The notes: generated by a model not told the origin, from the letters alone. Shown: positions 48,986 through 60,514, counted from the first letter of the stretch. The stretch: 64,000 bases of DNA from an uncultured delta proteobacterium (GCA_963792965.1 CAWBYW010000006.1:1-64000); one strand, 5' to 3'. Translations and numbers: made by a program.

Positions 48986-49827
48986 CTAACGGCCGGGGGA
49001 CGTCGTGAGCATCATCCCGGCGATCTCTTTGACGATCTTTGAGGCGGCGTGCGCCGTGATCCCGAGCGGGTCGCGCGTGGGGTTCATCTCCACGACGTCG
49101 GCCCCGACGATGGGGGCCGTGATGCCGTGGATGATGGTAAGCGCCTCGCGCGTCGTCAGCCCCCCGCCCTCCGGGTGGGAGACACCCGGCGCGCACCCCG
49201 GGTCCAGGACGTCCAGGTCAAACGACACGTAGAGCGGCCCCGCGAGATCAAGTACCGGGCCCGCCGCGAGATCCTTCATCTCGTGGACCTCGACGCCATA
49301 TCTTTTCGCCTGCTCCCGGAGGTGGCCGGTCATGCTCCTGATACCGACCTGGACGAGTCTGCGCACAAGCCCCTCCTCCATGATCCGGGCGAAGGGACAG
49401 GCGTGGGAGGTGCGGCTGCCCCGGTACTCTTCATAGAGATCGCCGTGGGCGTCACAGTGAAGGATCGTCAGGCCCCCGACACTATCGGCTATCCCCCGGA
49501 CGATGGGCCACGTCACGAAGTGATCCCCCCGAGGAAGATCGGGTGCTTTCCGGCCGACAACACCGCGCGGGCCCCGGAGGCGATCGCCCCGAAATCGTCG
49601 CGTCCGTCAAATACCACGTCGCCCGCGTCCATGAGGTGATCCTGCTGGTTCAGGTCAAGGCCGGTCTCTGTCCAGAGGTTGGATGATCCCGAAAAGAGCG
49701 CGGCACGGATCGCCTGGGGGCCGTGAGCCGCACCACGCATAAAGGATGAGTTCTCGTCGTGGGGAAGGCCGAGCAGGCAAACACGGGCAGAAGGATTTGC
49801 GGAGATATTTTGCGCGTATGATTTCAT
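48986..49827 (-). CDS. speB: agmatinase / ureohydrolase (frameshift near 49525)
   Basis: GLPHDENSSF, GGDH region, DAHGD, SHACPF, DLDVLDP..APG and GADVVEMNP. Confidence 0.85.
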
Positions 49828-49988
49828 GGGATGAAAGACCCGATGGGTTCTCACTATATATCAGATGGGATCGAATTGAGCAAGCGGTAAAAAGCAATAA
49901 AGTAGATCACTCGTGGAGCCCCTCTTACACACGGTTTCGAGCCCTTGCTTCTTCTCTCCGGCGGGCGCACGCAGTCCCGAACGATCTC

Positions 49989-50601
49989 TCATGACTCCGG
50001 CCGGACCTCGTAACGGCAGGTGGCGTCTCCTTTCGCTTTGCACGCGGTCTCAACCGACCTCATCCCACCGATCCCGGCCCACACGATCATGTCGTCCAGA
50101 AATCCGCTCACGATCGCGCAGACCGGCTTTTTGCTCTCGATTTTGAAGCAGTTTGAACAGTCGGGGTTGTCGTAGACGATCACGCCGTTCTCCCTGAAGA
50201 CCTTCCCCCTTCCCGAGATCACGGTATAGAGCTCGACCGCTTTGAAGAGTCGCTCTTCGGGCGGCAGGTCTTTGTAGGCGTCGAAGAGCCCCAGCCCCGT
50301 CGTCTGCTTCGCGATGGCCTTGCCGATCAGCCGGAAAGACCGACTTCGCGCCGGAAACACCGAGCAGATCGTAATAGCTGATGATGATCTTCGTATATTC
50401 ATCGGCGGTATAGTTTTTCTCGTAGTCGTAGCCCGGCTTGTTCTCGATGAGGTACGACATCTTGGCAAAGTTCAAGAGGGCTTTCAGCCCATTGGTCCCG
50501 AGCACCTCTTCGGTCGCGTCCATGACGATCCTGATCACGCCGTTGGCGACCGTCTTTTCCGCGTCGGGCTCCCGGCTGTTGACGTTGACCTTCTCTCCCA
50601 T
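49989..50601 (-). CDS. stand-alone V4R-domain protein (frameshift near 50340)
   Basis: EVLGTNGLKALLN, DCSNC..KPVCAIVSG and VETACKAKGDATCRY. Confidence 0.75.
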
Positions 50602-50829
50602 GGCCCCCTCCCCTATTTGTACATTGTATACAATTATTATATCACGGTAGGCTACTCCACAGACAAAAAAAGCGGGAAGCGCTGCCGTGCGATACGGTCC
50701 GCGTGCCGACCGTCGCGTGCCCATTTACTATAAAAATAGTAGATTTTAATCGCCTGGCCTGATCCTTGTTCGAAAAGCCGCATCTAAAGAAACAGGTAAC
50801 ATTATTAATGAAGAAAGGAGACGACTACC

Positions 50830-51789
50830 ATGGCAAGAACATATCCACACGGGACGGGACCGGTTAAACTGGTCTCGGGTGACTGGCTGGCGAGCCATCT
50901 GAAAGACGAAAAACTCGTAATCCTGGACGTCCAGCCCAATATTCATGACTATATCCTTGAGCATATCCCGGGCGCCATCTACCTCAACGAGGGGCTCTTC
51001 CGCACCTACGAGGGGTTTCTGCCCACCGTCTGGGTGAGGCCCGAGATTCTCAAGTCGGTCCTCGGCAACGCGGGGATCACACGCTCTACCCCGGTGGTTG
51101 TATACACGGGAGTCGGGCAGTTCAAGAAGTGGGGCGACGGCCTGGAGCAGACGATGGTCGCCTATACCCTGGCCCGGTTCGGCGTCAAGACCGTTTACGT
51201 GCTTGACGGCGGGCTGGATCAGTGGAAGAAAGAGGGAAGGCGGCTCTCCCAGGGCTATCCGACCGTAAAGAAGGCGAGGTTCAGACCATCTATCCGGGAG
51301 GATTTCTACGTCACCTACGAGGAGTTCCTGAAGCTCAAAGATCGTAAAGACGTGATGGTGCTGGACGCGCGTCCCATCGCCTTCTACGAAGGACAGGGCC
51401 CGTGGCCCATGCCCGGCCACATTCCCGGGGCGATCAGCCTCCCGTGGGCAAGCCTGATGGACGATACCAATAAGTCGTTGTTGAAGCCCGAAAAGGAAGT
51501 CGCCGAAATTCTCAGACGACACCACGTCACTCCCGATAAGACGATCATCTGCACCTGCGGCACCGGGAGGGAGGCGACCAACGAGTTCCTCCTGCTTGCG
51601 GGCTACCTCGGGTATAAGAAGGTCAAGCTGTATGAGGGGAGCTTTACCGAGTGGGTTCAGATACCCGGAAACAGGACCGTAAAGGGAAGCGATCCGCGAC
51701 GGGAGCCGATACCGGAACAGAGGACGACGAGAGCGGCGGCCAAGGGACGTACGGAGCATGGTACCAGGAAGGTACGGAGAGCCGCGTAG
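50830..51789 (+). CDS. two-domain rhodanese / thiosulfate sulfurtransferase
   Basis: HIPGA twice, LDGG, CTCGTGRE active loop and LYEGSFTEW. Confidence 0.9.
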   Translation: MARTYPHGTGPVKLVSGDWLASHLKDEKLVILDVQPNIHDYILEHIPGAIYLNEGLFRTYEGFLPTVWVRPEILKSVLGNAGITRSTPVVVYTGVGQFKKWGDGLEQTMVAYTLARFGVKTVYVLDGGLDQWKKEGRRLSQGYPTVKKARFRPSIREDFYVTYEEFLKLKDRKDVMVLDARPIAFYEGQGPWPMPGHIPGAISLPWASLMDDTNKSLLKPEKEVAEILRRHHVTPDKTIICTCGTGREATNEFLLLAGYLGYKKVKLYEGSFTEWVQIPGNRTVKGSDPRREPIPEQRTTRAAAKGRTEHGTRKVRRAA

Positions 51790-51955
51790 GCGTAGACGTG
51801 CGCGGCGCGGCGGTCGCGACAGTTACCCCAAAACGACGAAAGCCCCGCCTTCCGGGAGCGCATCAAGATGTGCGGTCCGGCCGGTAGGGCTTTCGCCTCT
51901 GTGGGGAGTTGCCTGGCGTCTGAACCCGAGAAACGGAGTTTTTTCGGGACGAGGC

Positions 51956-52756
51956 TCAGGCTATTTTCTTGCCCGCCAGCGGCGGCGAGGAGCTGAAAGC
52001 CTCGGTGAGGACGATTCTCCCGAACTTTCCGTCAAACGAGTCCACCGTGCCTTTCACCTGGTAGGCGATCGGGTCCATCGTGAGCACCATGACCGCCACG
52101 TGTTGTCCGTTTTTCAAACGAGTCAGATCCGTGTTGTAGCTCGAAACGGAGAACGCCAGTGATTTCCTGTCGATAGGGTAGACCGACATCGCCGGTGAGA
52201 TGAAGGGATACTCCTCCTTTTCCGGCACGTAGGCAATGGCCTTGATGGCCTGCATCTGGTCGTATTTCTTCTTGACGGTCAGCGGGATCTCGACCCCGCC
52301 GTTCTCCTTGAATCGGCGCATCTTCGCCTTAACGGAGACGAGGTCCTTGACAATCCCAAGCTTTCCCACCTGACCCGGCTGGAAACAACGCCTGATGGTG
52401 ACCGATCCGGCCTTCCTGATCTTCGTATACGCGTTGTAGCGGAACATGTCGCTGTAGCAGATCTTATCGAAGTAAGGCCCCTTGTTGACCCAGTCGTCGT
52501 TGAAGTCTCCGATCGTCTGGGCAAACGCAAGACCGAGATTTACGGCCAGCATTCCGACTTTCTTGTTGTGTTTCAGGTTCTCCTGGGTCTTGACCATCAA
52601 AAACTCGCCGAAGATGAGGAAATCCGATTCCGGCTTCCAGGTGTCGATGGAGGCGATAAAGGCGATGTTGGGTTTCCCCTGGCGGTCGACCGTCGCCATG
52701 AATTTGGCGATCATCGGCTCCGAATAGATGTCATACGTTTCTTTCGGCAACGCCAT
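51956..52756 (-). CDS. tandem pyridoxamine-5'-phosphate-oxidase-like (FMN-binding split barrel) protein
   Basis: KFMATVDRQGKPNI..KTQENLKHNKKV and a second repeat ending AYQVKGT. Confidence 0.7.
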   Translation of the reverse strand: MALPKETYDIYSEPMIAKFMATVDRQGKPNIAFIASIDTWKPESDFLIFGEFLMVKTQENLKHNKKVGMLAVNLGLAFAQTIGDFNDDWVNKGPYFDKICYSDMFRYNAYTKIRKAGSVTIRRCFQPGQVGKLGIVKDLVSVKAKMRRFKENGGVEIPLTVKKKYDQMQAIKAIAYVPEKEEYPFISPAMSVYPIDRKSLAFSVSSYNTDLTRLKNGQHVAVMVLTMDPIAYQVKGTVDSFDGKFGRIVLTEAFSSSPPLAGKKIA

Positions 52757-52798
52757 ATAAGTCCTCCCCGTCTATAATCTATAATATAAATAGGTACG

Positions 52799-53728
52799 TT
52801 ATTGCTCAATCCTGGTCGCTCCCGACCAATGGACGTCGGGTACATTTTCTTTCCGGGCTATCGCGGCCAGCCGCTCCATTCGTTCCTTCGGGATCAGCGG
52901 CGCCTTCTCGAGGGCAAACACCTTATCCAGCCGCGTGTACTTGCTTCCGCACAGGTTGTTGAAGGCTAATAGCTCGTAGCGCACCACGGCCGGCATTCGC
53001 TCCTTTATGAAACGCGAAATCGCGCGGATGTTATCCTCGTCGTCGGTATAGCCGGGTATGATCGGCGTGCGCACCCAGATGGGAATAGGCCCCTTCCCGA
53101 AGGCCTCGGCGTTGGCGTGGATATTCTTGGTTCCCATACCGGCGGCTTTCCGGTGTCGTCCGTCGTCCATCACCTTGAGGTCAAAAAGGATCAAATCGGT
53201 ATAGGGCAACATTCGCGCGTAGGCCTTCGGGGCAAACGCCCCACAGGTGTCGATCGCCGTGGCTATCCCTGCTTCCTTACAGAGGCGCAAGAGCTCCGAG
53301 GCGGCCTCCGGCTGCATCGCGGAGTCTCCCCCGCCCAGCGTCACCCCGCCGCCGGAATTACGATAGAAGGCCTCGTCCTTTTTCACTTCGTCAAAGAGCT
53401 GCTCGGGTGTATAGCTTTTCCCGATGACTTCCAGGGCGGCGGCCGGGCACGCGTCTTCGCACTTGCCGCAGGCGGTGCACTTTCCCCGGTCGATCTTTAT
53501 GCCGTCGGGCGTCAGCGTCAGCGCGTCCTCGGGGCAGACCTCGATGCAGTCCTTGGCCCCGATGCAGCGGACGTCGTACCACATCAGCTCGGGTTTCGGT
53601 GATATCCCCTCGGGGTTGTGGCACCACACACACGAGAGGGGACAGCCCTTGAAAAATACCGTCGTCCTGATTCCCGGGCCGTCCTCCGTGGAAAAACGCT
53701 GGATGTTGAAGACTATCGCGTGCGTCAC
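52799..53728 (-). CDS. glycyl-radical enzyme activating enzyme with ferredoxin insert
   Basis: IQRFSTEDGPGIRTTVFFKGCPLSCVWCHNPE, CIGAKDCIEVCP, CTACGKCEDACP and GGGVTLGGGD. Confidence 0.95.
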   Translation of the reverse strand: MTHAIVFNIQRFSTEDGPGIRTTVFFKGCPLSCVWCHNPEGISPKPELMWYDVRCIGAKDCIEVCPEDALTLTPDGIKIDRGKCTACGKCEDACPAAALEVIGKSYTPEQLFDEVKKDEAFYRNSGGGVTLGGGDSAMQPEAASELLRLCKEAGIATAIDTCGAFAPKAYARMLPYTDLILFDLKVMDDGRHRKAAGMGTKNIHANAEAFGKGPIPIWVRTPIIPGYTDDEDNIRAISRFIKERMPAVVRYELLAFNNLCGSKYTRLDKVFALEKAPLIPKERMERLAAIARKENVPDVHWSGATRIEQ

Positions 53729-53734
53729 CGTTCT

Positions 53735-56137
53735 CTACAGCTCCTTGGCGACGCGCGAGATGATCTCGTCCTGGATCTCCCGCCCGATCGAAACGAAATA
53801 GGCGTTGTAGCCGGTGACGCGGACGATCAGGTTCTTATAGTCGTCCGGGTTGGCCTGGGCCTTCTTGAGCGTCTCGGAATCGATCACATTAATCTGCAGG
53901 GCCGTCCCGCCCTTCTCGTTATAGGTCCTCAGAAACGACATCAGCTTATCGGTCCGCTCTTTATCCTTGACCAGAGAGGGCGAGAAACTGATGGTGTGCG
54001 AGTCGCCGTTGGGTGCGGTTTCAAGGCCCAGCTTGCCGACGCTCATGGTGACGGCCGTCGGGCCCTTCGTGTCCGTGCCGTTGACCGGGCAAACGCCGTT
54101 TGAAAGGTACGTGCCGCGCTTGCGCCCGTCAGGGGTGGCCGCGGTCAGGGGGGCGTAAGAGATCCAGTAGTTCCAGGAGAGATAGCCCCCGCGGTATTTA
54201 CGGCCCGTGGCGGGAGAGGTGTATTTTGTCGCCTCGGTGCTCCAGTATTGCGAGACCTCCTTGGCAATGGAGTCCGCATAGTCGTCGTCGTTGCCGTACT
54301 TCGGGGCCTTGTTAATCAGGGTCTGGCGCAGCTTCTCGTGTCCTTCGAAGTTGTCCTTTATCGCGGTCAAGAGCTCGTCCATCGTGATGCGCTTATCGTC
54401 GTAGATGAGTTTCTTTACGGCCACCAGCGAATCGACCGCCGTGGCAAGGGCGATTCCCTCAACGGTGATGTAGTTGTGTTCCGTGCCGCCCTGGTTGACG
54501 TCCTTGCCCTTCTTTTCGCACCCGTCCATCAGGGTGGAGAGATAGACGGTGGGCTGGTATTTCGCGCGGGACTCGTCGGAGATATTATAGACTTCGATCA
54601 GCTGCCTCAGTATTGAGGAGAGCTGTACTTTGAAGGCCGCCATGAATTGGTCGAAGTTCTTGAACTTACGGGGATCGCCCGTCTTGGGGCCCCCGCGCTC
54701 GCCCGTCTTCATGTCTCTGCCGTTGTTGAGGGTAAGCTCTACGGCCTTGGCGATGTTGAGGTTCACGTCGACGGTGCCCGAGCGGTCGTTGCCCTGGAGC
54801 GTGTTTTCCAGACACCCGACCGGGGCGTAGTCCCACAGCTTGTCTTCCGGCAGCCCCTGCCACTTGAGGGCACGCATGGAGTTCTCATCGAAGTTGATGA
54901 GAAACGGAGATCCCTGGGCCTCGATAACGAGCTCCGCGATCCGCCGCAGGAACTTGTCCGGGGTCTTGGCGTGTATGCGGACGTTCGGCTTTGGCTCGAG
55001 CAGGTTCATCTCTTCTATGACGTCCATCATCAGCCAGGTCAGGTCGTTGGAGGCGTCCTCTTTCTTTTCGTTGATGCCGCCCAGCGTGATGAGCTGCCCG
55101 AAGGATGCCGATATCCCCTGGTTTTCTCCGATCCGGCCCTGGAAATCGTAGACGTAGTTGCACTTGACCCAGAAGCAGTCGAGGAGCTCTTTGGCCCAGT
55201 CGCGGGTGAGCTTTTTGGAATCAATGTCCTTCTTGTAGTACGGGAAGAGATACTGGTCGATGCGGCCGGGGGAGAGCCCCGGGCCGGGATACGACTCGTC
55301 CGTCATGACCAGCATATGGGTCATCCAGAGGGACTGGAGCGCCTCGTAGAAAGACCCCGCCGGCTCCCACGGAACCTTTCGGGCGATTCGGGCGATCTCG
55401 ACGAGCTCATCCTTACGCTTCTTGTCCTTTGTCGCCGCAGCTTCTTTCTCGGCGGCCTCGGCGTACCGAAGCGAAAGGATGCGCGGTACCTCGGCGGCGA
55501 TGATCATTGCCTCCAGATAGTCGATCTTCGCCTTATCGCGCGTGCCGGCAATCTCCGCCTTATAATCCGCGATAAGACCCTTGAAACCTTTCTTGAGGAC
55601 CTTGGGATAGTCCGGGATCAGGTGCCCCGGCGCGACGGCGGCGTTTCCGAGGCCCAGGCCGGTGACACGCTTGGCCGCTTTCCACCAGGCGTCGTTGAGT
55701 TTCTGCGCCTTCTTGGCCTCGGCCTTCGTATGGGAGCGTGAAAGCGCGGTGTTGAACTGGCCGCCGACAATCAGCTCGCCCTCGAGGATCTGTACGGGAA
55801 GGTATTTTTCAACGACGATCTTGAGGAATGTCGCCCGCCGTTTGGCCAGGGACATCTCGTAGAATCCCTCGGGGACATCTACCTTCTCGGCACATGCCAA
55901 GAGGCTGTCGGAAAAGCCGGGCAGGAAGGGGTAAACGTCCGGCACCACCCCGAACGTATGGTAAGGAAATACGACATCCCATTCGGTCCCGGTGGTAAGG
56001 GGCATAACCTCATTCTGGAAATAAGGACGCCCGTTGAAATTAAAATACTCGTCCCTGAGCCGTTTTACCCGCCCCGAGAGTTTTTCTGAAGGTGACCAGA
56101 TCTGGTCTTTAGTTACCGCACATGACCCTTGTGCCAT
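53735..56137 (-). CDS. glycyl-radical enzyme of unknown class
   Basis: GRIDQYL, Cys loop PVGCLEN, PKYGNDD, ATPDGR and Gly loop VRVTGYNAYF. Confidence 0.93.
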   Translation of the reverse strand: MAQGSCAVTKDQIWSPSEKLSGRVKRLRDEYFNFNGRPYFQNEVMPLTTGTEWDVVFPYHTFGVVPDVYPFLPGFSDSLLACAEKVDVPEGFYEMSLAKRRATFLKIVVEKYLPVQILEGELIVGGQFNTALSRSHTKAEAKKAQKLNDAWWKAAKRVTGLGLGNAAVAPGHLIPDYPKVLKKGFKGLIADYKAEIAGTRDKAKIDYLEAMIIAAEVPRILSLRYAEAAEKEAAATKDKKRKDELVEIARIARKVPWEPAGSFYEALQSLWMTHMLVMTDESYPGPGLSPGRIDQYLFPYYKKDIDSKKLTRDWAKELLDCFWVKCNYVYDFQGRIGENQGISASFGQLITLGGINEKKEDASNDLTWLMMDVIEEMNLLEPKPNVRIHAKTPDKFLRRIAELVIEAQGSPFLINFDENSMRALKWQGLPEDKLWDYAPVGCLENTLQGNDRSGTVDVNLNIAKAVELTLNNGRDMKTGERGGPKTGDPRKFKNFDQFMAAFKVQLSSILRQLIEVYNISDESRAKYQPTVYLSTLMDGCEKKGKDVNQGGTEHNYITVEGIALATAVDSLVAVKKLIYDDKRITMDELLTAIKDNFEGHEKLRQTLINKAPKYGNDDDYADSIAKEVSQYWSTEATKYTSPATGRKYRGGYLSWNYWISYAPLTAATPDGRKRGTYLSNGVCPVNGTDTKGPTAVTMSVGKLGLETAPNGDSHTISFSPSLVKDKERTDKLMSFLRTYNEKGGTALQINVIDSETLKKAQANPDDYKNLIVRVTGYNAYFVSIGREIQDEIISRVAKEL

Positions 56138-56321: not shown

Positions 56322-56867
56322 GTGGAAACGAAAAAAGACTTCAAGAATGTAAGGGTCATGGTGGAAGTGGCGCTTGCCGCGGCGCTGGCCGTGGTGCTCT
56401 CTATGCTCAAGCTCTATACCCTCCCCCAGGGCGGATCGCTGTCGCTGGAGATGATCCCGGTCTTCTACGTGGCGATCAAGCGGGGAGGTACGCTCGGATG
56501 CCTCACGGGCCTCCTGATGGGGTTGGGACAGCTCCTTTTCGGGGCTTACATCGTCCATCCCGTACAGCTGGTCCTGGATTATCCCGTGGCGTTTGCCCTC
56601 CTCGGGGTGGCGGGTTTTATGAGAAGCACCCCGCTGGTCGGCGTCGTCATAGGGTGCACCCTCAGGTTCCTTGCCCATTTTGCCTCCGGAATTATCTTTT
56701 TTGGCCAGTACGCCCCCGAGGGGATGAACGTCTGGGTCTACTCGGCGGTATATAACGCGAGCTACATGCTCCCGGAGACAGCGATCACCCTGGTCGTCAT
56801 CGCGTTGATCCTTACGCGTGAGAAAACGATCGCTCAGGGGAGGAACGCCCCGCCGCCCGCAAAGTGA
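56322..56867 (+). CDS. thiT: ECF transporter S component for thiamine
   Basis: LPQGGSLSLEMIP, HPVQLVLDYPVAF, RFLAHFASG..FFGQYAP and YSAVYNASY. Confidence 0.88.
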   Translation: METKKDFKNVRVMVEVALAAALAVVLSMLKLYTLPQGGSLSLEMIPVFYVAIKRGGTLGCLTGLLMGLGQLLFGAYIVHPVQLVLDYPVAFALLGVAGFMRSTPLVGVVIGCTLRFLAHFASGIIFFGQYAPEGMNVWVYSAVYNASYMLPETAITLVVIALILTREKTIAQGRNAPPPAK

Positions 56868-56985: not shown

Positions 56986-57636
56986 GTGGTTATGATCTGC
57001 GTAGTCTTTTCGGGGGGGACATACCGAAACCCTGAATTCTATCGGGACTTTCTGAAAGACGCGGACCTCGTCATCGCGGCCGACAGCGGGGGCGACCTCC
57101 TGTTGTCGCTCGGTACCGTCCCGCACATCCTGATCGGTGACATGGATTCGATCGGACGCACCACGCTTTCCGACTTCAAGAAGAAAGGGGCCGAAATCGT
57201 AGAGCTCTCCCCCGAGAAGGACTTCACCGATACCGAGATGGCCGTCCGCCTCGCGATCGAGCGCGGTGCCCGCGAGATCGTTCTCCTCGGCGCGATCGGG
57301 GGCCGTATCGACCACACGCTTGCCAATCTGTCCCTGTTGATCTTTGCCTCGGGCCGGGGGGTGCGTCTCCGGATGATCGACGAAGATCAGGAGGCATATC
57401 TCCTGACGCCTGCAATCAGGAACCACATTCCGGGTGCCGTTGGCGACACCGTCTCCCTCATATCTTTGGCCGATCGGACGACGGGGACCACGACCCACGA
57501 CCTCAAGTACCCGCTCAGTGCCGCCTCGCTCGCGCTCATGTCCCCACTCGGGGTAAGCAACGAGATATCCGGCCCCGAGCCCTGGGTCGAGTTTGCCGAG
57601 GGGCGGCTGCTTCTCATCAGGGTAAGGAATCCCTAA
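56986..57636 (+). CDS. thiN: thiamine diphosphokinase
   Basis: IAADSG, IGDMDS, EKDFTDTE, GGRIDHTLAN and LKYPL..GVSNE. Confidence 0.92.
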   Translation: MVMICVVFSGGTYRNPEFYRDFLKDADLVIAADSGGDLLLSLGTVPHILIGDMDSIGRTTLSDFKKKGAEIVELSPEKDFTDTEMAVRLAIERGAREIVLLGAIGGRIDHTLANLSLLIFASGRGVRLRMIDEDQEAYLLTPAIRNHIPGAVGDTVSLISLADRTTGTTTHDLKYPLSAASLALMSPLGVSNEISGPEPWVEFAEGRLLLIRVRNP

Positions 57637-57806: not shown

Positions 57807-58694
57807 TTACTTACTGGCCTTCTCGATTGCCGCCCGGATGGCCGGCAGGGCCTTTATCGCCGCCTTTTCCCCCTCGTTAATCAGGTAGGTCTTCTTATCA
57901 AAATCGATCAGCCCAACGCCCGAGACGTTCGGTTTGATGACGACGTCGGCGTCCCTGAGCTGGTACTTGCTGATCTCGTTTCCCATGATGTTAAACGTCT
58001 GCATGATCACGTCGATAACGTTGGTCACGTCGTAGTTGGTCATTGACGACGACACATCCACGGCGATAACGACGTCGGCCCCCATGTCACGCGCCACATC
58101 GACCGGGACGTTGTCTACCACCCCACCGTCCACGAGTATCCTTCCCCCGATGACGAGCGGCTTGAAGATTCCCGGAATCGAGGTCGAGGCCCGCACCGCC
58201 GTCGAGATCGATCCGGTCTTGAAGACGACTTTATTTCCGGTATTGAGGTCCGTCGCGACGGCTGCAAAGCGGATCTTGAGATCCTCGATGTTCTTGACGG
58301 TTACACGGCTGTTTAAGAAGCGAACGATGCTCTCCCCCTTGACGACACCCACCAGGAAGTTGGGGAGGGAGAAATCGAAGATATCTTCTTCCCTCATCCC
58401 CCAGGTGGCTCTCTCCAGCTTGTCCGCGTTGCCGTAAAAGGCATACATCGCCCCCGTGAGGCTGCCCGCGCTCGTCCCGACGATAATGTCGATCGGAATC
58501 CTTTCTCTCTCAAGCACCTTGATGACGCCGATGTGTGCAAAACCCCGTGACGCCCCGCCCGACAGCACCAGGCCGATCTTGGGCCTCGGCTTTTGCACCA
58601 CCGGCGCAGGAACCTTATGGGGGCAGCCGAAGAGCGAGAAAGAGACCGCGAGGATCAAAGATGAGACAAGGAACCGATGAAAAGTCCTTCTCAT
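57807..58694 (-). CDS. patatin-like phospholipase, lipoprotein
   Basis: Lipobox LFGC, LSGGASRG, GTSAG and DGG. Confidence 0.9.
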   Translation of the reverse strand: MRRTFHRFLVSSLILAVSFSLFGCPHKVPAPVVQKPRPKIGLVLSGGASRGFAHIGVIKVLERERIPIDIIVGTSAGSLTGAMYAFYGNADKLERATWGMREEDIFDFSLPNFLVGVVKGESIVRFLNSRVTVKNIEDLKIRFAAVATDLNTGNKVVFKTGSISTAVRASTSIPGIFKPLVIGGRILVDGGVVDNVPVDVARDMGADVVIAVDVSSSMTNYDVTNVIDVIMQTFNIMGNEISKYQLRDADVVIKPNVSGVGLIDFDKKTYLINEGEKAAIKALPAIRAAIEKASK

Positions 58695-58773: not shown

Positions 58774-59712
58774 ATGCCTTTCATTTATCCTTTCGATATG
58801 GAAGACGATGCGCCGAGCCCTTCATACCGTGCGCTCTTGTCAACGGGGGAGTTGGAGCGACGCGCAGACCTCCTTGAAGAAATTCTCGGGGAGTGCCGCC
58901 TCTGTCCCCGAATGTGCGGGGCCGACCGCGTCGAGGGGAAGGTCGGGACCTGCCGGGCGGGCCCCCTCCCCATGGTCTCGTCGGCCTTTCCCCATTTCGG
59001 GGAGGAGCCGCCGCTCGTCGGGAGCCGCGGGTCCGGCACAATCTTCATGACCCACTGCAACCTCCGCTGTGTCTTCTGTCAGAATGACGACATCAGCCAC
59101 GGCGGGCGGGGAAGTGTCGTGGACGCCGAGGGGCTGGCGCGCTGTATGATCGGACTGCAGAGGCAGGGATGCCACAACATAAACTTCGTAACGCCGACCC
59201 ATTATGTACCCCAGATCGTTCGCGCGCTGGCGAGCGCCGCACGTCAGGGGCTGGAAGTTCCCCTGGTCTACAACACCGGCGGGTATGATTCGATCGAGGT
59301 GATCCGGCTTCTGTCCGGGGTCTTCGATATCTACATGCCCGATTATAAGTTTGCCGACGGCGCGCCGGCCGAAAAATATATGAACGCCCCGGACTACCCG
59401 GAGGTGGTCAGAAGCGTCCTTTCCGAGATGCACCGGCAGGTCGGAGTGCTCAAGACGGACGAACACGGCATCGCCTACCGGGGCCTCCTGATCCGCCACC
59501 TCGTGATGCCCGAACGTCTTTCGGGGACGGAGAAAGCGATGCAGTTTATCGGCGAAACACTCTCGCGCGACTCCTACGTCAACATCATGGACCAGTACCG
59601 GCCCGAGCATCGTGCGCACGACTACCCCGAGCTTGCGCGGCGCGTAACCGCACGCGAGTTCGACGAAGCGGTCCGCTACGCCCGGGCGGCCGGGCTCTCG
59701 CGGGGTTTTTGA
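58774..59712 (+). CDS. PflX-family radical SAM protein
   Basis: CRLCPRMC, HFGEEP, CNLRCVFCQN, NINFVTP, DIYMPD and RHLVMP. Confidence 0.88.
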   Translation: MPFIYPFDMEDDAPSPSYRALLSTGELERRADLLEEILGECRLCPRMCGADRVEGKVGTCRAGPLPMVSSAFPHFGEEPPLVGSRGSGTIFMTHCNLRCVFCQNDDISHGGRGSVVDAEGLARCMIGLQRQGCHNINFVTPTHYVPQIVRALASAARQGLEVPLVYNTGGYDSIEVIRLLSGVFDIYMPDYKFADGAPAEKYMNAPDYPEVVRSVLSEMHRQVGVLKTDEHGIAYRGLLIRHLVMPERLSGTEKAMQFIGETLSRDSYVNIMDQYRPEHRAHDYPELARRVTAREFDEAVRYARAAGLSRGF

Positions 59713-59713
59713 G

Positions 59714-60514
59714 GTGCAGGCCGCCGTGTTGGATCGCCGGATCGAGGATGCGCTCAAAAGGCGTGGGCTTTCGGTGCACGGCTTTTGCCCCACGCATGAC
59801 CTCCTCTTCGGCGACCTGACCGAGGCAGAGCTTCGCCTCTTCTATGACCAGATGAGGCGCTACTCGGTGAGGCTGATCCTGCGCAATATAGTCAAGCGGC
59901 AGGACGGCTTCACGGAGGCAGACCTCGGCGACTTTTCCCGGCCCGACGAGCGACTACGCGTCATCGAAACCCTGGTCGGCATCGGGATTGTCGAGCCGGA
60001 CGGCGGCTCTTTTCGTCTGAAGAAGCGGCCCGTCAGGAGCTTCGGCCCAACGCTTGAGTGGTTCGTTGCGTATATGATGCAGGCCGAGTTCGCCTCCCCC
60101 GCCGCATGGGGTGTCACGCTGGGCCCGAATGGCCCGGGTGGCGACTACGACGTGATTTCCTATTACGAGGACGAGCTGATCTACATCGAGGTCAAGTCCG
60201 CCCCGCCCAAGGGGGTCCAGACCGGTGAGGCGGCGGCCTTTCTCGCGCGGGTCAACACGCTCCTTCCCCGGGCCGCCTTCTTTTTCGTCGACACGGAGCT
60301 GAGGATGCGGGACCGGGTGGTGCTGCTGTTTCATCAGGAGTTTTTGGAGCGCATGAAAGACCCCTATCCTAAGCGCCCCGACCTGAAGAACCTGACGGGG
60401 GAGATATTTCACATCGACCACCGGATATTCATTCTCAACGCCTACCGGGACGTGGCGGCCAATTTCACCGTCTGTCTCAGGGATTTCCTGGCCCGGGGGC
60501 TTTCGGTGCTCTAA
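59714..60514 (+). CDS. hypothetical protein with a PD-(D/E)xK nuclease-like motif
   Basis: GPTLEW..GDYDVI...IYIEVKS; starts immediately after the pflX-like stop. Confidence 0.6.
   Translation: MQAAVLDRRIEDALKRRGLSVHGFCPTHDLLFGDLTEAELRLFYDQMRRYSVRLILRNIVKRQDGFTEADLGDFSRPDERLRVIETLVGIGIVEPDGGSFRLKKRPVRSFGPTLEWFVAYMMQAEFASPAAWGVTLGPNGPGGDYDVISYYEDELIYIEVKSAPPKGVQTGEAAAFLARVNTLLPRAAFFFVDTELRMRDRVVLLFHQEFLERMKDPYPKRPDLKNLTGEIFHIDHRIFILNAYRDVAANFTVCLRDFLARGLSVL

Follow-up and report, generated by a model that had tools for sequence, protein, structure and literature searches.

Glycyl radical enzymes (GREs) of the kind of glycerol dehydratase (GD, PDB 1r8w), HypD, propanediol dehydratase (PD) and CutC share a 10-stranded barrel, a single Cys in a CXE loop and an activase that is encoded directly downstream. 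Elsewhere in the superfamily a small protein that binds the catalytic subunit is encoded with the GRE, as for example the beta and gamma subunits of benzylsuccinate synthase (BSS), the beta, gamma and delta subunits of methylalkylsuccinate synthase (MASS) and the gamma subunit of 4-hydroxyphenylacetate decarboxylase (HPAD), all of which resemble either high-potential iron-sulfur proteins (HiPIP-like, [4Fe-4S]) or rubredoxin. A June 2026 review lists accessory subunits for these three GREs only and calls their roles 'enigmatic'; BSS-beta and MASS-beta cover the substrate channel, and flavin is mentioned only for a host monooxygenase (PMC13450708). In this paper we analyse a minus-strand operon in a stretch of 64,000 nucleotides from an uncultured delta proteobacterium (GCA_963792965.1 CAWBYW010000006.1:1-64000, hereafter the window), which encodes a GRE, its activase and a protein made of two split barrels, the partner. 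Our preferred reading, to which we give a probability of roughly 55%, is that the operon encodes a two-subunit GRE of an uncharacterised and widely transferred clade, with an eliminase-like alpha subunit and the tandem split-barrel protein as beta subunit.

The window's GRE is like GD, HypD, PD and CutC in barrel, CXE loop and activase, and its His172 aligns with GD His164. It departs from them in its N-terminal region, where about 43 residues are inserted, in a further 'YP' insertion, in the T and N of its Gly loop and in residues of the pocket, and it is paired with what we propose to be an obligate second subunit. As in BSS, MASS and HPAD, a small protein is encoded with the GRE, but this one is a split barrel without conserved Cys or His, and it goes with an eliminase-type GRE. 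The partner is a fourth, structurally unrelated kind of GRE accessory protein, a helper type undescribed for the superfamily, and the structure prediction suggests that the catalytic subunit has acquired an insertion that serves as its docking site. Our literature search, which left most subscription journals outside, found neither a pairing of a glycyl radical enzyme with a split barrel nor a description of this GRE clade. Papers that join glycyl radical enzymes and pyridoxamine concern unrelated loci, e.g. LssP of the limonene operon.

The glycyl radical enzyme and its place in the superfamily

An earlier note on this DNA, made from the sequence alone, had described three tightly linked minus-strand genes, and the open reading frames (ORFs) of GRE, activase and partner were recovered at the same coordinates (Table 1), co-directional and with gaps of 6 and 42 bp. 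The GRE matches the Pfam families PFL-like (501.9 bits) and Gly_radical (98.6 bits, cut-off 22.2). All the motifs quoted in that note are found in the translations, including NEVMPLTTGTEWD, ESYPGPGLSPGR and GGYLSWNYW. The sequence PVGCLENTLQG around the Cys loop is invariant in 34 family members, at a mean column identity of 73%, and VGCLEN has a single Cys in place of the two adjacent Cys of the formate-lyases (PFL/TdcE). The Gly loop has the RVxG[FWY] form, with T and N standing where the reference GREs have A and S (RVAGYSA). The extra N-terminal residues (about 41-68 and 84-96) are absent from GD, CutC, YbiW, a PflD-like GRE and a paralogue from the same genome, and in the same alignment the 'YP' insertion lies within ESYPGPGLSPGR. 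Residues before about 148-165 are matched by no family model and by no plasmid-borne GRE, which can be explained by the extra residues that the clade has there.

An AlphaFold2 (AF2) model of the GRE alone has a mean predicted local distance difference test score (pLDDT) of 83, with low confidence in loops 341-347 and 651-700. Foldseek aligns it to GD, HypD, CutC and PD with TM-scores of 0.78-0.81, as expected for a PFL-like 10-stranded barrel. The eliminases rank at the top, the X-succinate synthases (XSS enzymes) appear from rank 46 and the decarboxylase AAD is 50th. The best solved relative is the GD of C. butyricum (431 bits), at an identity of 38.6% by tblastn and 31% in the Foldseek alignment.

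The GRE scores below the NCBIfam equivalog cut-offs for HypD (489/1100), HpsG (482/1000), HpfG (432/1000), CutC (412/1050), IAD (330/1100), HPAD (288/1150) and PFL (TIGR01255, 127/994), and also below that of the broad TIGR01774 subfamily model (536/678). Its relatives in subfamily A, to which it belongs, and in a second subfamily, B, which is described below, likewise fall below every NCBIfam cut-off. In comparison with the window's GRE, family members in public data score at least 1136 bits, as against 431 for GD. The names given to them by public pipelines are inconsistent: hydroxyproline dehydratase, formate C-acetyltransferase, pyruvate formate-lyase and PFL/glycerol dehydratase family. 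In a quick IQ-TREE search of 38 GREs with long branches and SH-aLRT support only, subfamilies A and B form one clade (SH-aLRT 99, stem 1.89) apart from GD, CutC, YbiW, the PflD-like GRE, TdcE and two paralogues. HypD, IslA, PD and the decarboxylases were compared through hidden Markov model (HMM) and PDB scores only. Other GREs of the anaerobic subsurface, the PFL2 of Archaeoglobus fulgidus (2f3o) and the 'PflD-like' environmental GREs, score 377-380 bits, and PFL2 is no closer to the window's GRE than GD is. In the review PFL2 is termed a GRE of unknown function, and we found no statement of such a partner there (PMC13450708).

Judged by sequence and profile comparison, the GRE clade is uncharacterised and outside the known families. 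The earlier note had proposed a new GRE class, and the GRE indeed lies outside every characterised cluster tested by HMM cut-offs, PDB scores and tree. The two outcomes that had been named beforehand as speaking against a new class, placement within a known cluster and a partner that is not conserved, did not come about.

The GRE is served by a dedicated radical S-adenosylmethionine (SAM) activase, which scores 328.4 bits against TIGR02494 in NCBIfam (cut-off 174) and carries a CX3CX2C motif (C29/C33/C36) and two ferredoxin-type motifs.

Four further GRE loci are present in the window's genome (C13:17868-20198, C9:175317-177590, C13:158862-161265 and C22:6732-9069). All four fall below the NCBIfam cut-offs and lack a split-barrel partner; one is divided between two frames, and another comes in four or more pieces, with a TAA stop.

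The tandem split-barrel partner and its linkage to the enzyme

The domain databases say little about the partner. Pfam PNPOx_N matches residues 19-76 only (35.9 bits), no NCBIfam family matches, and a protein atlas labels the clusters with the partner 'PNPOx family / hypothetical' only. An AF2 model built from 50 family sequences has a pLDDT of 93.7. Searched with Foldseek, each half (about 125-135 residues) finds HupZ, the Swol_0183 FMN-binding protein, an F420 reductase, the flavin mononucleotide (FMN)-binding protein of D. vulgaris and the prenylated-FMN (prFMN) maturase PhdC at E values of 2e-7 to 1e-5, with a probability of 1.00 to HupZ, 3in6, 3f7e and 1axj, so that both halves are split beta-barrels. 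At the sequence level, the N half in the family profile matches HupZ (E 3e-7) and Swol_0183 (E 1.7e-6). The two PNPOx-like split-barrel repeats of the earlier note are borne out by hhalign, which aligns the N half to the C half at a probability of 98.65% (E 4.9e-16). HupZ (5esc, 7kq2), Swol_0183 (3in6) and the D. vulgaris protein have the same fold as each half, but are homodimers of about 120-150 aa, whereas the partner consists of two diverged copies fused together.

The halves differ in two respects. The N half has an insertion of 23 residues, which holds RYNAY; in the hhalign alignment nothing in the C half corresponds to it. A phosphate-binding-like S/T-K motif is kept in the N half only, and for this reason a single site for a cofactor or ligand is possible, judging from the alignment. 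Both subfamilies share the S/T-K motif and, at position 235, a basic residue; Asn30 is replaced by His in the partners of subfamily B, and the family alignment contains no conserved Cys or His.

Two kinds of unusual homologues were seen. Single-domain proteins of about 140 aa (in G118, G151, G182, G270 and others) score 45-86 bits and cover the partner's N half alone; a TAA stop interrupts some of these matches, and the proteins may be stand-alone ancestors of the tandem form. A protein of 518 aa (P0326) joins a PFL-like part (residues 4-359, profile positions 267-618) to partner positions 111-262. We do not regard this single chimera as a natural fusion; it is probably a deletion or gene-calling artefact.

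A genome scan with one genome per species gave at least 597 pattern matches, which is a lower bound; relatives of the GRE are encoded in 567 of the 597 matches listed, i.e. in at least 567 species genomes. The locus counts rest on the best 80 of these at least 567 relatives, with identities of 56-75%. These 80 loci come from metagenome-assembled genomes of Anaerolineae and Dehalococcoidia (Chloroflexota), Actinomycetota (Geothermincola, Solincola) and Thermodesulfobacteriota (Desulfobacterota), and also from Nitrospirota, Bacillota, Phycisphaerae, Spirochaetes and Thorarchaeota. The closest relative among the matches listed is in a Ca. Zymogenus genome. The clade has spread by gene transfer over at least eight bacterial phyla and the Thorarchaeota.

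The partner was detected by tblastn in 63 of the 80 loci, always on the same strand and downstream of the GRE. Most of the partner-less loci (13 of 17) have less than the 2 kb of DNA after the GRE that we required of an assessable locus. Among the assessable loci, which happen to number 63 as well, 59 have the partner downstream of the GRE and 56 the activase, so the dedicated partner of the earlier note passed its conservation check. The four exceptions (L018, L024, L049 and L076) each have exactly one partner orthologue elsewhere in the genome (309-329 bits), in one case with an activase just upstream. Conversely, at four other loci (L034, L043, L044 and L080) the partner lies directly behind the GRE without an activase between them, the activase being elsewhere. 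Over 53 loci, the pairwise distances between GREs are correlated with those between partners (r = 0.89), the value for GRE and activase being 0.87; shared descent inflates both. The window's genome, with its several GREs, has a single partner gene, that of this operon. In L119 (G187:C2:563339-564138), from a genome of the window's own family, the partner is in two pieces (profile positions 2-127 and 179-265). With an activase that is likewise matched only in part, this copy of the cassette may be decaying.

The reverse search, with the partner profile over 401 genomes of the window's phylum (E ≤ 1e-10), found matches in 66 genomes: 22 with an orthologue of at least 312 bits, about 25 with a full-length relative scoring 135-175 bits, and the others with single-domain proteins of about 140 aa. 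At 29 of the 30 partner loci returned, a GRE and/or an activase lies directly upstream, and the 30th has only 113 bp of upstream DNA. The weaker-scoring relatives follow the second GRE subfamily, B, whose members share 44-47% identity with the window's GRE over about 820 residues, the N-terminal insertion included. In the tree, B is nested in A. Among bacteria and Asgard archaea alike, GREs of both subfamilies have the tandem split-barrel protein as an obligate companion in the genome.

Is the companion also a subunit? We predicted the complex from GRE residues 1-732 and the partner, using unpaired alignments of our own. The three runs gave ipSAE values of 0.80, 0.78 and 0.80, compared with 0.00 for the best of three controls, with a partner pLDDT of 88 and a contact agreement of at least 93%. 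In a benchmark, whose counts apply only roughly to our own alignments, 2 of 215 mismatched pairs attain the same mark, as against 116 of 157 solved complexes. It is unlikely that the prediction merely reproduces a known complex, because PDB sequence and fold searches and the review contain no solved complex of a GRE and a split barrel. On the GRE most of the predicted interface is made up of residues 43-82, i.e. the clade-specific insertion, and the remainder of 332-338, 656-663 and 675; on the partner it comprises 52-53, 103-114 (RYNAY), 158-164, 226-232 and 253-265 (SPPLPG). The partner residues in this interface coincide with those most conserved in both subfamilies (RYNAY and PP). G347 and Y652, aligned to Y339 and Y640 of GD, lie next to GRE segments 332-338 and 656-663, and the partner is predicted in a place comparable to that of BSS-beta and MASS-beta.

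In our model the partner probably clips onto the GRE as a beta subunit. A physical subunit fits better than a separate protein for three reasons: the partner stays behind the GRE at the four loci where the activase is elsewhere, its most conserved residues fall in the predicted interface, and the interface uses an N-terminal insertion that is confined to this GRE clade.

Active site, possible reaction and competing explanations

C442-x-E444 aligns with C433/E435 of GD, and C442-L-E444 is invariant in the 34 family members and in subfamily B, so that the CXE signature of eliminases and isomerases is present. According to the review, CXE is retained in every 1,2-eliminase and isomerase, where the Glu forms a hydrogen bond to a hydroxyl of the substrate, and His164 of GD protonates the leaving hydroxyl; HPAD has C503/E505, and CXE is also found in decarboxylases and isomerases (PMC13450708). 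The earlier note took C-x-E to suggest elimination or decarboxylation. The motif is compatible with both, and also with isomerisation.

Tyr652 aligns with GD Tyr640, P286/G287 with GD H281/S282 and G347 with GD Y339; in GD these residues line the glycerol-binding pocket. Subfamilies A and B differ in pocket positions (e.g. Y652 versus Met) and this suggests related but distinct substrates. In the C-S lyases the sulfonate is anchored by two Arg and one Gln, R183, Q187 and R672 in HpsG (PMC13450708). This anchor of IslA, IseG and HpsG is not kept in the window's GRE: G651 aligns with R672 in the 6lon alignment, and if that alignment is extrapolated by a few residues beyond its start, V168 and H172 stand at HpsG R183 and Q187. 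CutC has an Asp where the window's GRE has H172, which sets the two apart; this residue, Asp216 of CutC, has a role in binding trimethylammonium.

Neighbouring genes give weak hints at the substrate. Of the 8 tested ORFs directly upstream of B-type GREs, 6 are FadR-type GntR regulators, and three subfamily A loci have one as well. An acyl-CoA dehydrogenase lies near the cassette in 11 of the 80 loci (Actinomycetota, Dehalococcoidia) and beside one B locus; other recurrent neighbours are enoyl-CoA hydratase, MaoC-like dehydratase, ADP-forming and AMP-forming coenzyme A (CoA) ligases and aldehyde:ferredoxin oxidoreductase. These regulators and CoA-metabolism neighbours point weakly to a small organic acid. 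Among ten B loci of the window's phylum (L121-L130), the order regulator, GRE, activase, partner was confirmed in six, PAS hybrid histidine kinases are nearby in four, and in two (L127 and L130) a second, unrelated GRE adjoins the B-type locus.

A possible mechanism can be outlined for the two-subunit enzyme. The activase would install the radical on Gly776, leading to a thiyl radical on Cys442 that would abstract a hydrogen from a hydroxyl-bearing carbon. Glu444 would deprotonate the hydroxyl and His172 would assist the loss of the neighbouring leaving group, in a chemistry of the 1,2-eliminase or isomerase type. The substrate would probably be a small anionic compound, such as a hydroxy-carboxylate. 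In the predicted complex, the RYNAY loop and the SPPLPG C-terminus of the beta subunit clamp onto the alpha insertion at residues 43-82. Loops 332-338 and 656-663 of alpha would be touched as well, and because they flank active-site strands the partner would be near the presumed active-site route. There, beta might gate or complete the substrate channel in the manner of BSS-beta and MASS-beta, and it may hold a flavin or the anionic end of the substrate in a single pocket made of S/T-K and Lys/Arg.

Several observations weigh against this two-subunit reading. Binding is a structure prediction from unpaired alignments in which the glycyl radical domain is cut off. The partner gene is unlinked to the GRE in the four genomes mentioned above, and no fused form of GRE and partner was found among longer homologues, which is weak evidence. 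The partner is homologous to FMN-binding proteins and keeps a PNPOx-like motif, so a redox role is possible by homology. For alpha, CXE is not restricted to eliminases and therefore does not seem to fix the reaction class, the GRE differs from GD at the positions aligned with H281/S282 and Y339, and the tree is a quick one that leaves HypD, IslA, PD and the decarboxylases to score comparisons. Beyond the three genes of the cassette no neighbour is universal, and no substrate can be named from one.

The strongest alternative, which we nevertheless consider unlikely, is that the partner is a free FMN flavoprotein that acts on the redox state of the GRE product or feeds electrons to the [4Fe-4S] cluster of the activase. 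GRE activases require a low-potential electron donor, and the PNPOx_N and Swol_0183 matches, the structural similarity to split barrels that bind FMN, F420 and prFMN, and the S/T-K motif with basic residue 235 common to both subfamilies would all suit such a protein. To our knowledge, HupZ, the best sequence match of the partner, is not known as a flavoprotein, which counts against this idea. So does the position of the partner directly behind the GRE at the four loci with the activase elsewhere. RYNAY and PP are conserved in the predicted GRE interface, outside the canonical pocket; Asn30 has become His in subfamily B, the C half lacks the phosphate motif, and the GRE has a matching clade-specific insertion.

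It is less probable still that the enzyme is an organic-acid decarboxylase with an HPAD-like CXE, its partner taking the solubilising or activating role of HPAD gamma. HPAD has the C503/E505 pair and requires its accessory subunit for activity (PMC13450708), and nearby there are CoA-metabolism genes and regulators of a type that usually responds to carboxylates. Against this, the decarboxylase models (IAD and HPAD) score lowest, AAD is far down the Foldseek ranking, and His172 matches the dehydratase His of GD. Moreover, the predicted docking is beside the active-site loops, whereas the gamma subunits of HPAD, BSS and MASS lie about 30 Å from the active site (PMC13450708).

A fumarate-adding, hydrocarbon-activating enzyme with the partner as a non-Fe-S analogue of BSS-beta is very improbable. 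In its favour, the clade occurs in the same phyla, Chloroflexi, Actinobacteria and Thorarchaeota, as the divergent GREs that Dong et al. 2019 assigned to fumarate addition (PMC6472368) and that may include it, beta-oxidation-type genes are nearby, and to date no GREs but the XSS enzymes are known to have accessory subunits that cover the substrate channel (PMC13450708). Against it, TutD (230 bits) and MasD (270 bits) score well below GD, BSS and MASS take Foldseek ranks 46-49 at 23-24% identity, CXE with His is an eliminase/isomerase signature (PMC13450708), no HiPIP-like small subunit is among the neighbour ORFs put through Pfam, in agreement with the earlier note, and the cassette is very widespread, including genomes without hydrocarbon-degradation genes near it.

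The locus, its surroundings and what the system may mean

The terminator-like hairpin is placed between the partner stop codon and the convergent rhodanese gene. Since this plus-strand gene is the next one, the operon appears to comprise three genes. A minus-strand ORF at 50746-51759 is probably a shadow of the rhodanese gene and was discarded, and another at 50050-50724 has no family match in Pfam or NCBIfam. Further along, an agmatinase (arginase family) is split over two overlapping minus-strand ORFs (48986-49516 and 49513-49854; N part 113 aa, C part 176 aa) by a frameshift or assembly error.

Table 1. Coordinates of the operon, its sequence features and the adjoining genes, counted from the first letter of the window
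Feature	Position	Strand	Basis or remark
GRE (catalytic/alpha subunit), 800 aa	53735..56137	-	Pfam, AF2, Foldseek
GRE activating enzyme (radical SAM), 309 aa, GTG start	52799..53728	-	TIGR02494 and Cys motifs
Tandem split-barrel partner, proposed beta subunit, 266 aa	51956..52756	-	PNPOx_N, AF2, Foldseek, repeat, linkage
Clade-specific N-terminal insertion of the GRE, residues 41-98	55844..56017	-	alignment; predicted docking site for the partner
Cys loop PVGCLEN (Cys442, Glu444)	54803..54823	-	translation; aligns with GD C433/E435
Gly loop RVTGYNAYF (Gly776)	53795..53821	-	translation; RVxG[FWY] loop
RYNAY loop of the partner (residues 106-110)	52427..52441	-	nearly invariant in both subfamilies; predicted interface
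Promoter-like hexamers TTGAAA-17-TATCAT	56300-56272	-	consensus scan, pattern match only
Promoter-like hexamers TTGCAA-17-TATGAT	56228-56200	-	consensus scan, pattern match only
GGAGG Shine-Dalgarno, separate from the hexamers	just 5' of the GRE ATG at 56137	-	direct sequence reading; pattern match only
Terminator-like hairpin 3' of the partner gene	51837..51854	-	consensus scan, pattern match only
Rhodanese gene	50830-51789	+	convergent with the operon
ThiT (Thia_YuaJ) thiamine transporter	56358-56867	+	divergent from the GRE operon
Thiamine pyrophosphokinase	56986-57636	+	divergent from the GRE operon

On the other side the operon adjoins ThiT, and thus the statement in the earlier note that no transporter gene is present does not hold. 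The pair of ThiT and thiamine pyrophosphokinase genes is also found beside the GRE of the closest relative in Ca. Zymogenus. Rfam has no match in the window, and so finds no thiamine pyrophosphate (TPP) riboswitch in the 220-bp intergenic region between GRE and thiT. There are other thiamine hints: Thorarchaeota have ThiN-domain genes, two loci carry UPF0047, and others have TPP enzymes. Each is confined to few lineages, and for that reason we set a thiamine link aside. By a rough estimate of our own, such neighbours are presumably no commoner than chance. As the earlier note had stated, a microcompartment is not in sight: in the genome, whose completeness is 88.85%, no bacterial microcompartment shell gene (PF00936) was found. 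The window's locus also lacks genes for an alcohol or aldehyde dehydrogenase. Close to the thiamine genes are a patatin-like phospholipase (RssA-like, 57807-58694, minus strand), a radical-SAM protein (58774-59712, plus strand) and a 266-aa ORF without a family match (59714-60514, plus strand), in none of which we see a link to the GRE operon.

One extension of the two-subunit reading deserves mention, even if we regard it as doubtful. Where alpha and beta meet, right above the substrate channel, the beta subunit might bind a flavin or some other cofactor of redox or anionic character. If this were true, it would be the first GRE that couples glycyl/thiyl radical chemistry to a dedicated flavin subunit, and a net reduction or oxidation would become possible, for instance the reductive dehydroxylation of a hydroxy acid. 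Apart from class III ribonucleotide reductases, we know of no GREs with net redox transformations. A large proportion of subsurface anaerobes, Asgard archaea among them, would then use a flavin-coupled GRE.

Whatever the role of beta, sediment metagenome studies read similar divergent GREs as hydrocarbon-activating enzymes, and knowing the reaction of this clade would correct the carbon-cycle inferences drawn from them. Once identified, that reaction would add a new architecture, and possibly a new chemistry, to the glycyl radical enzymes.

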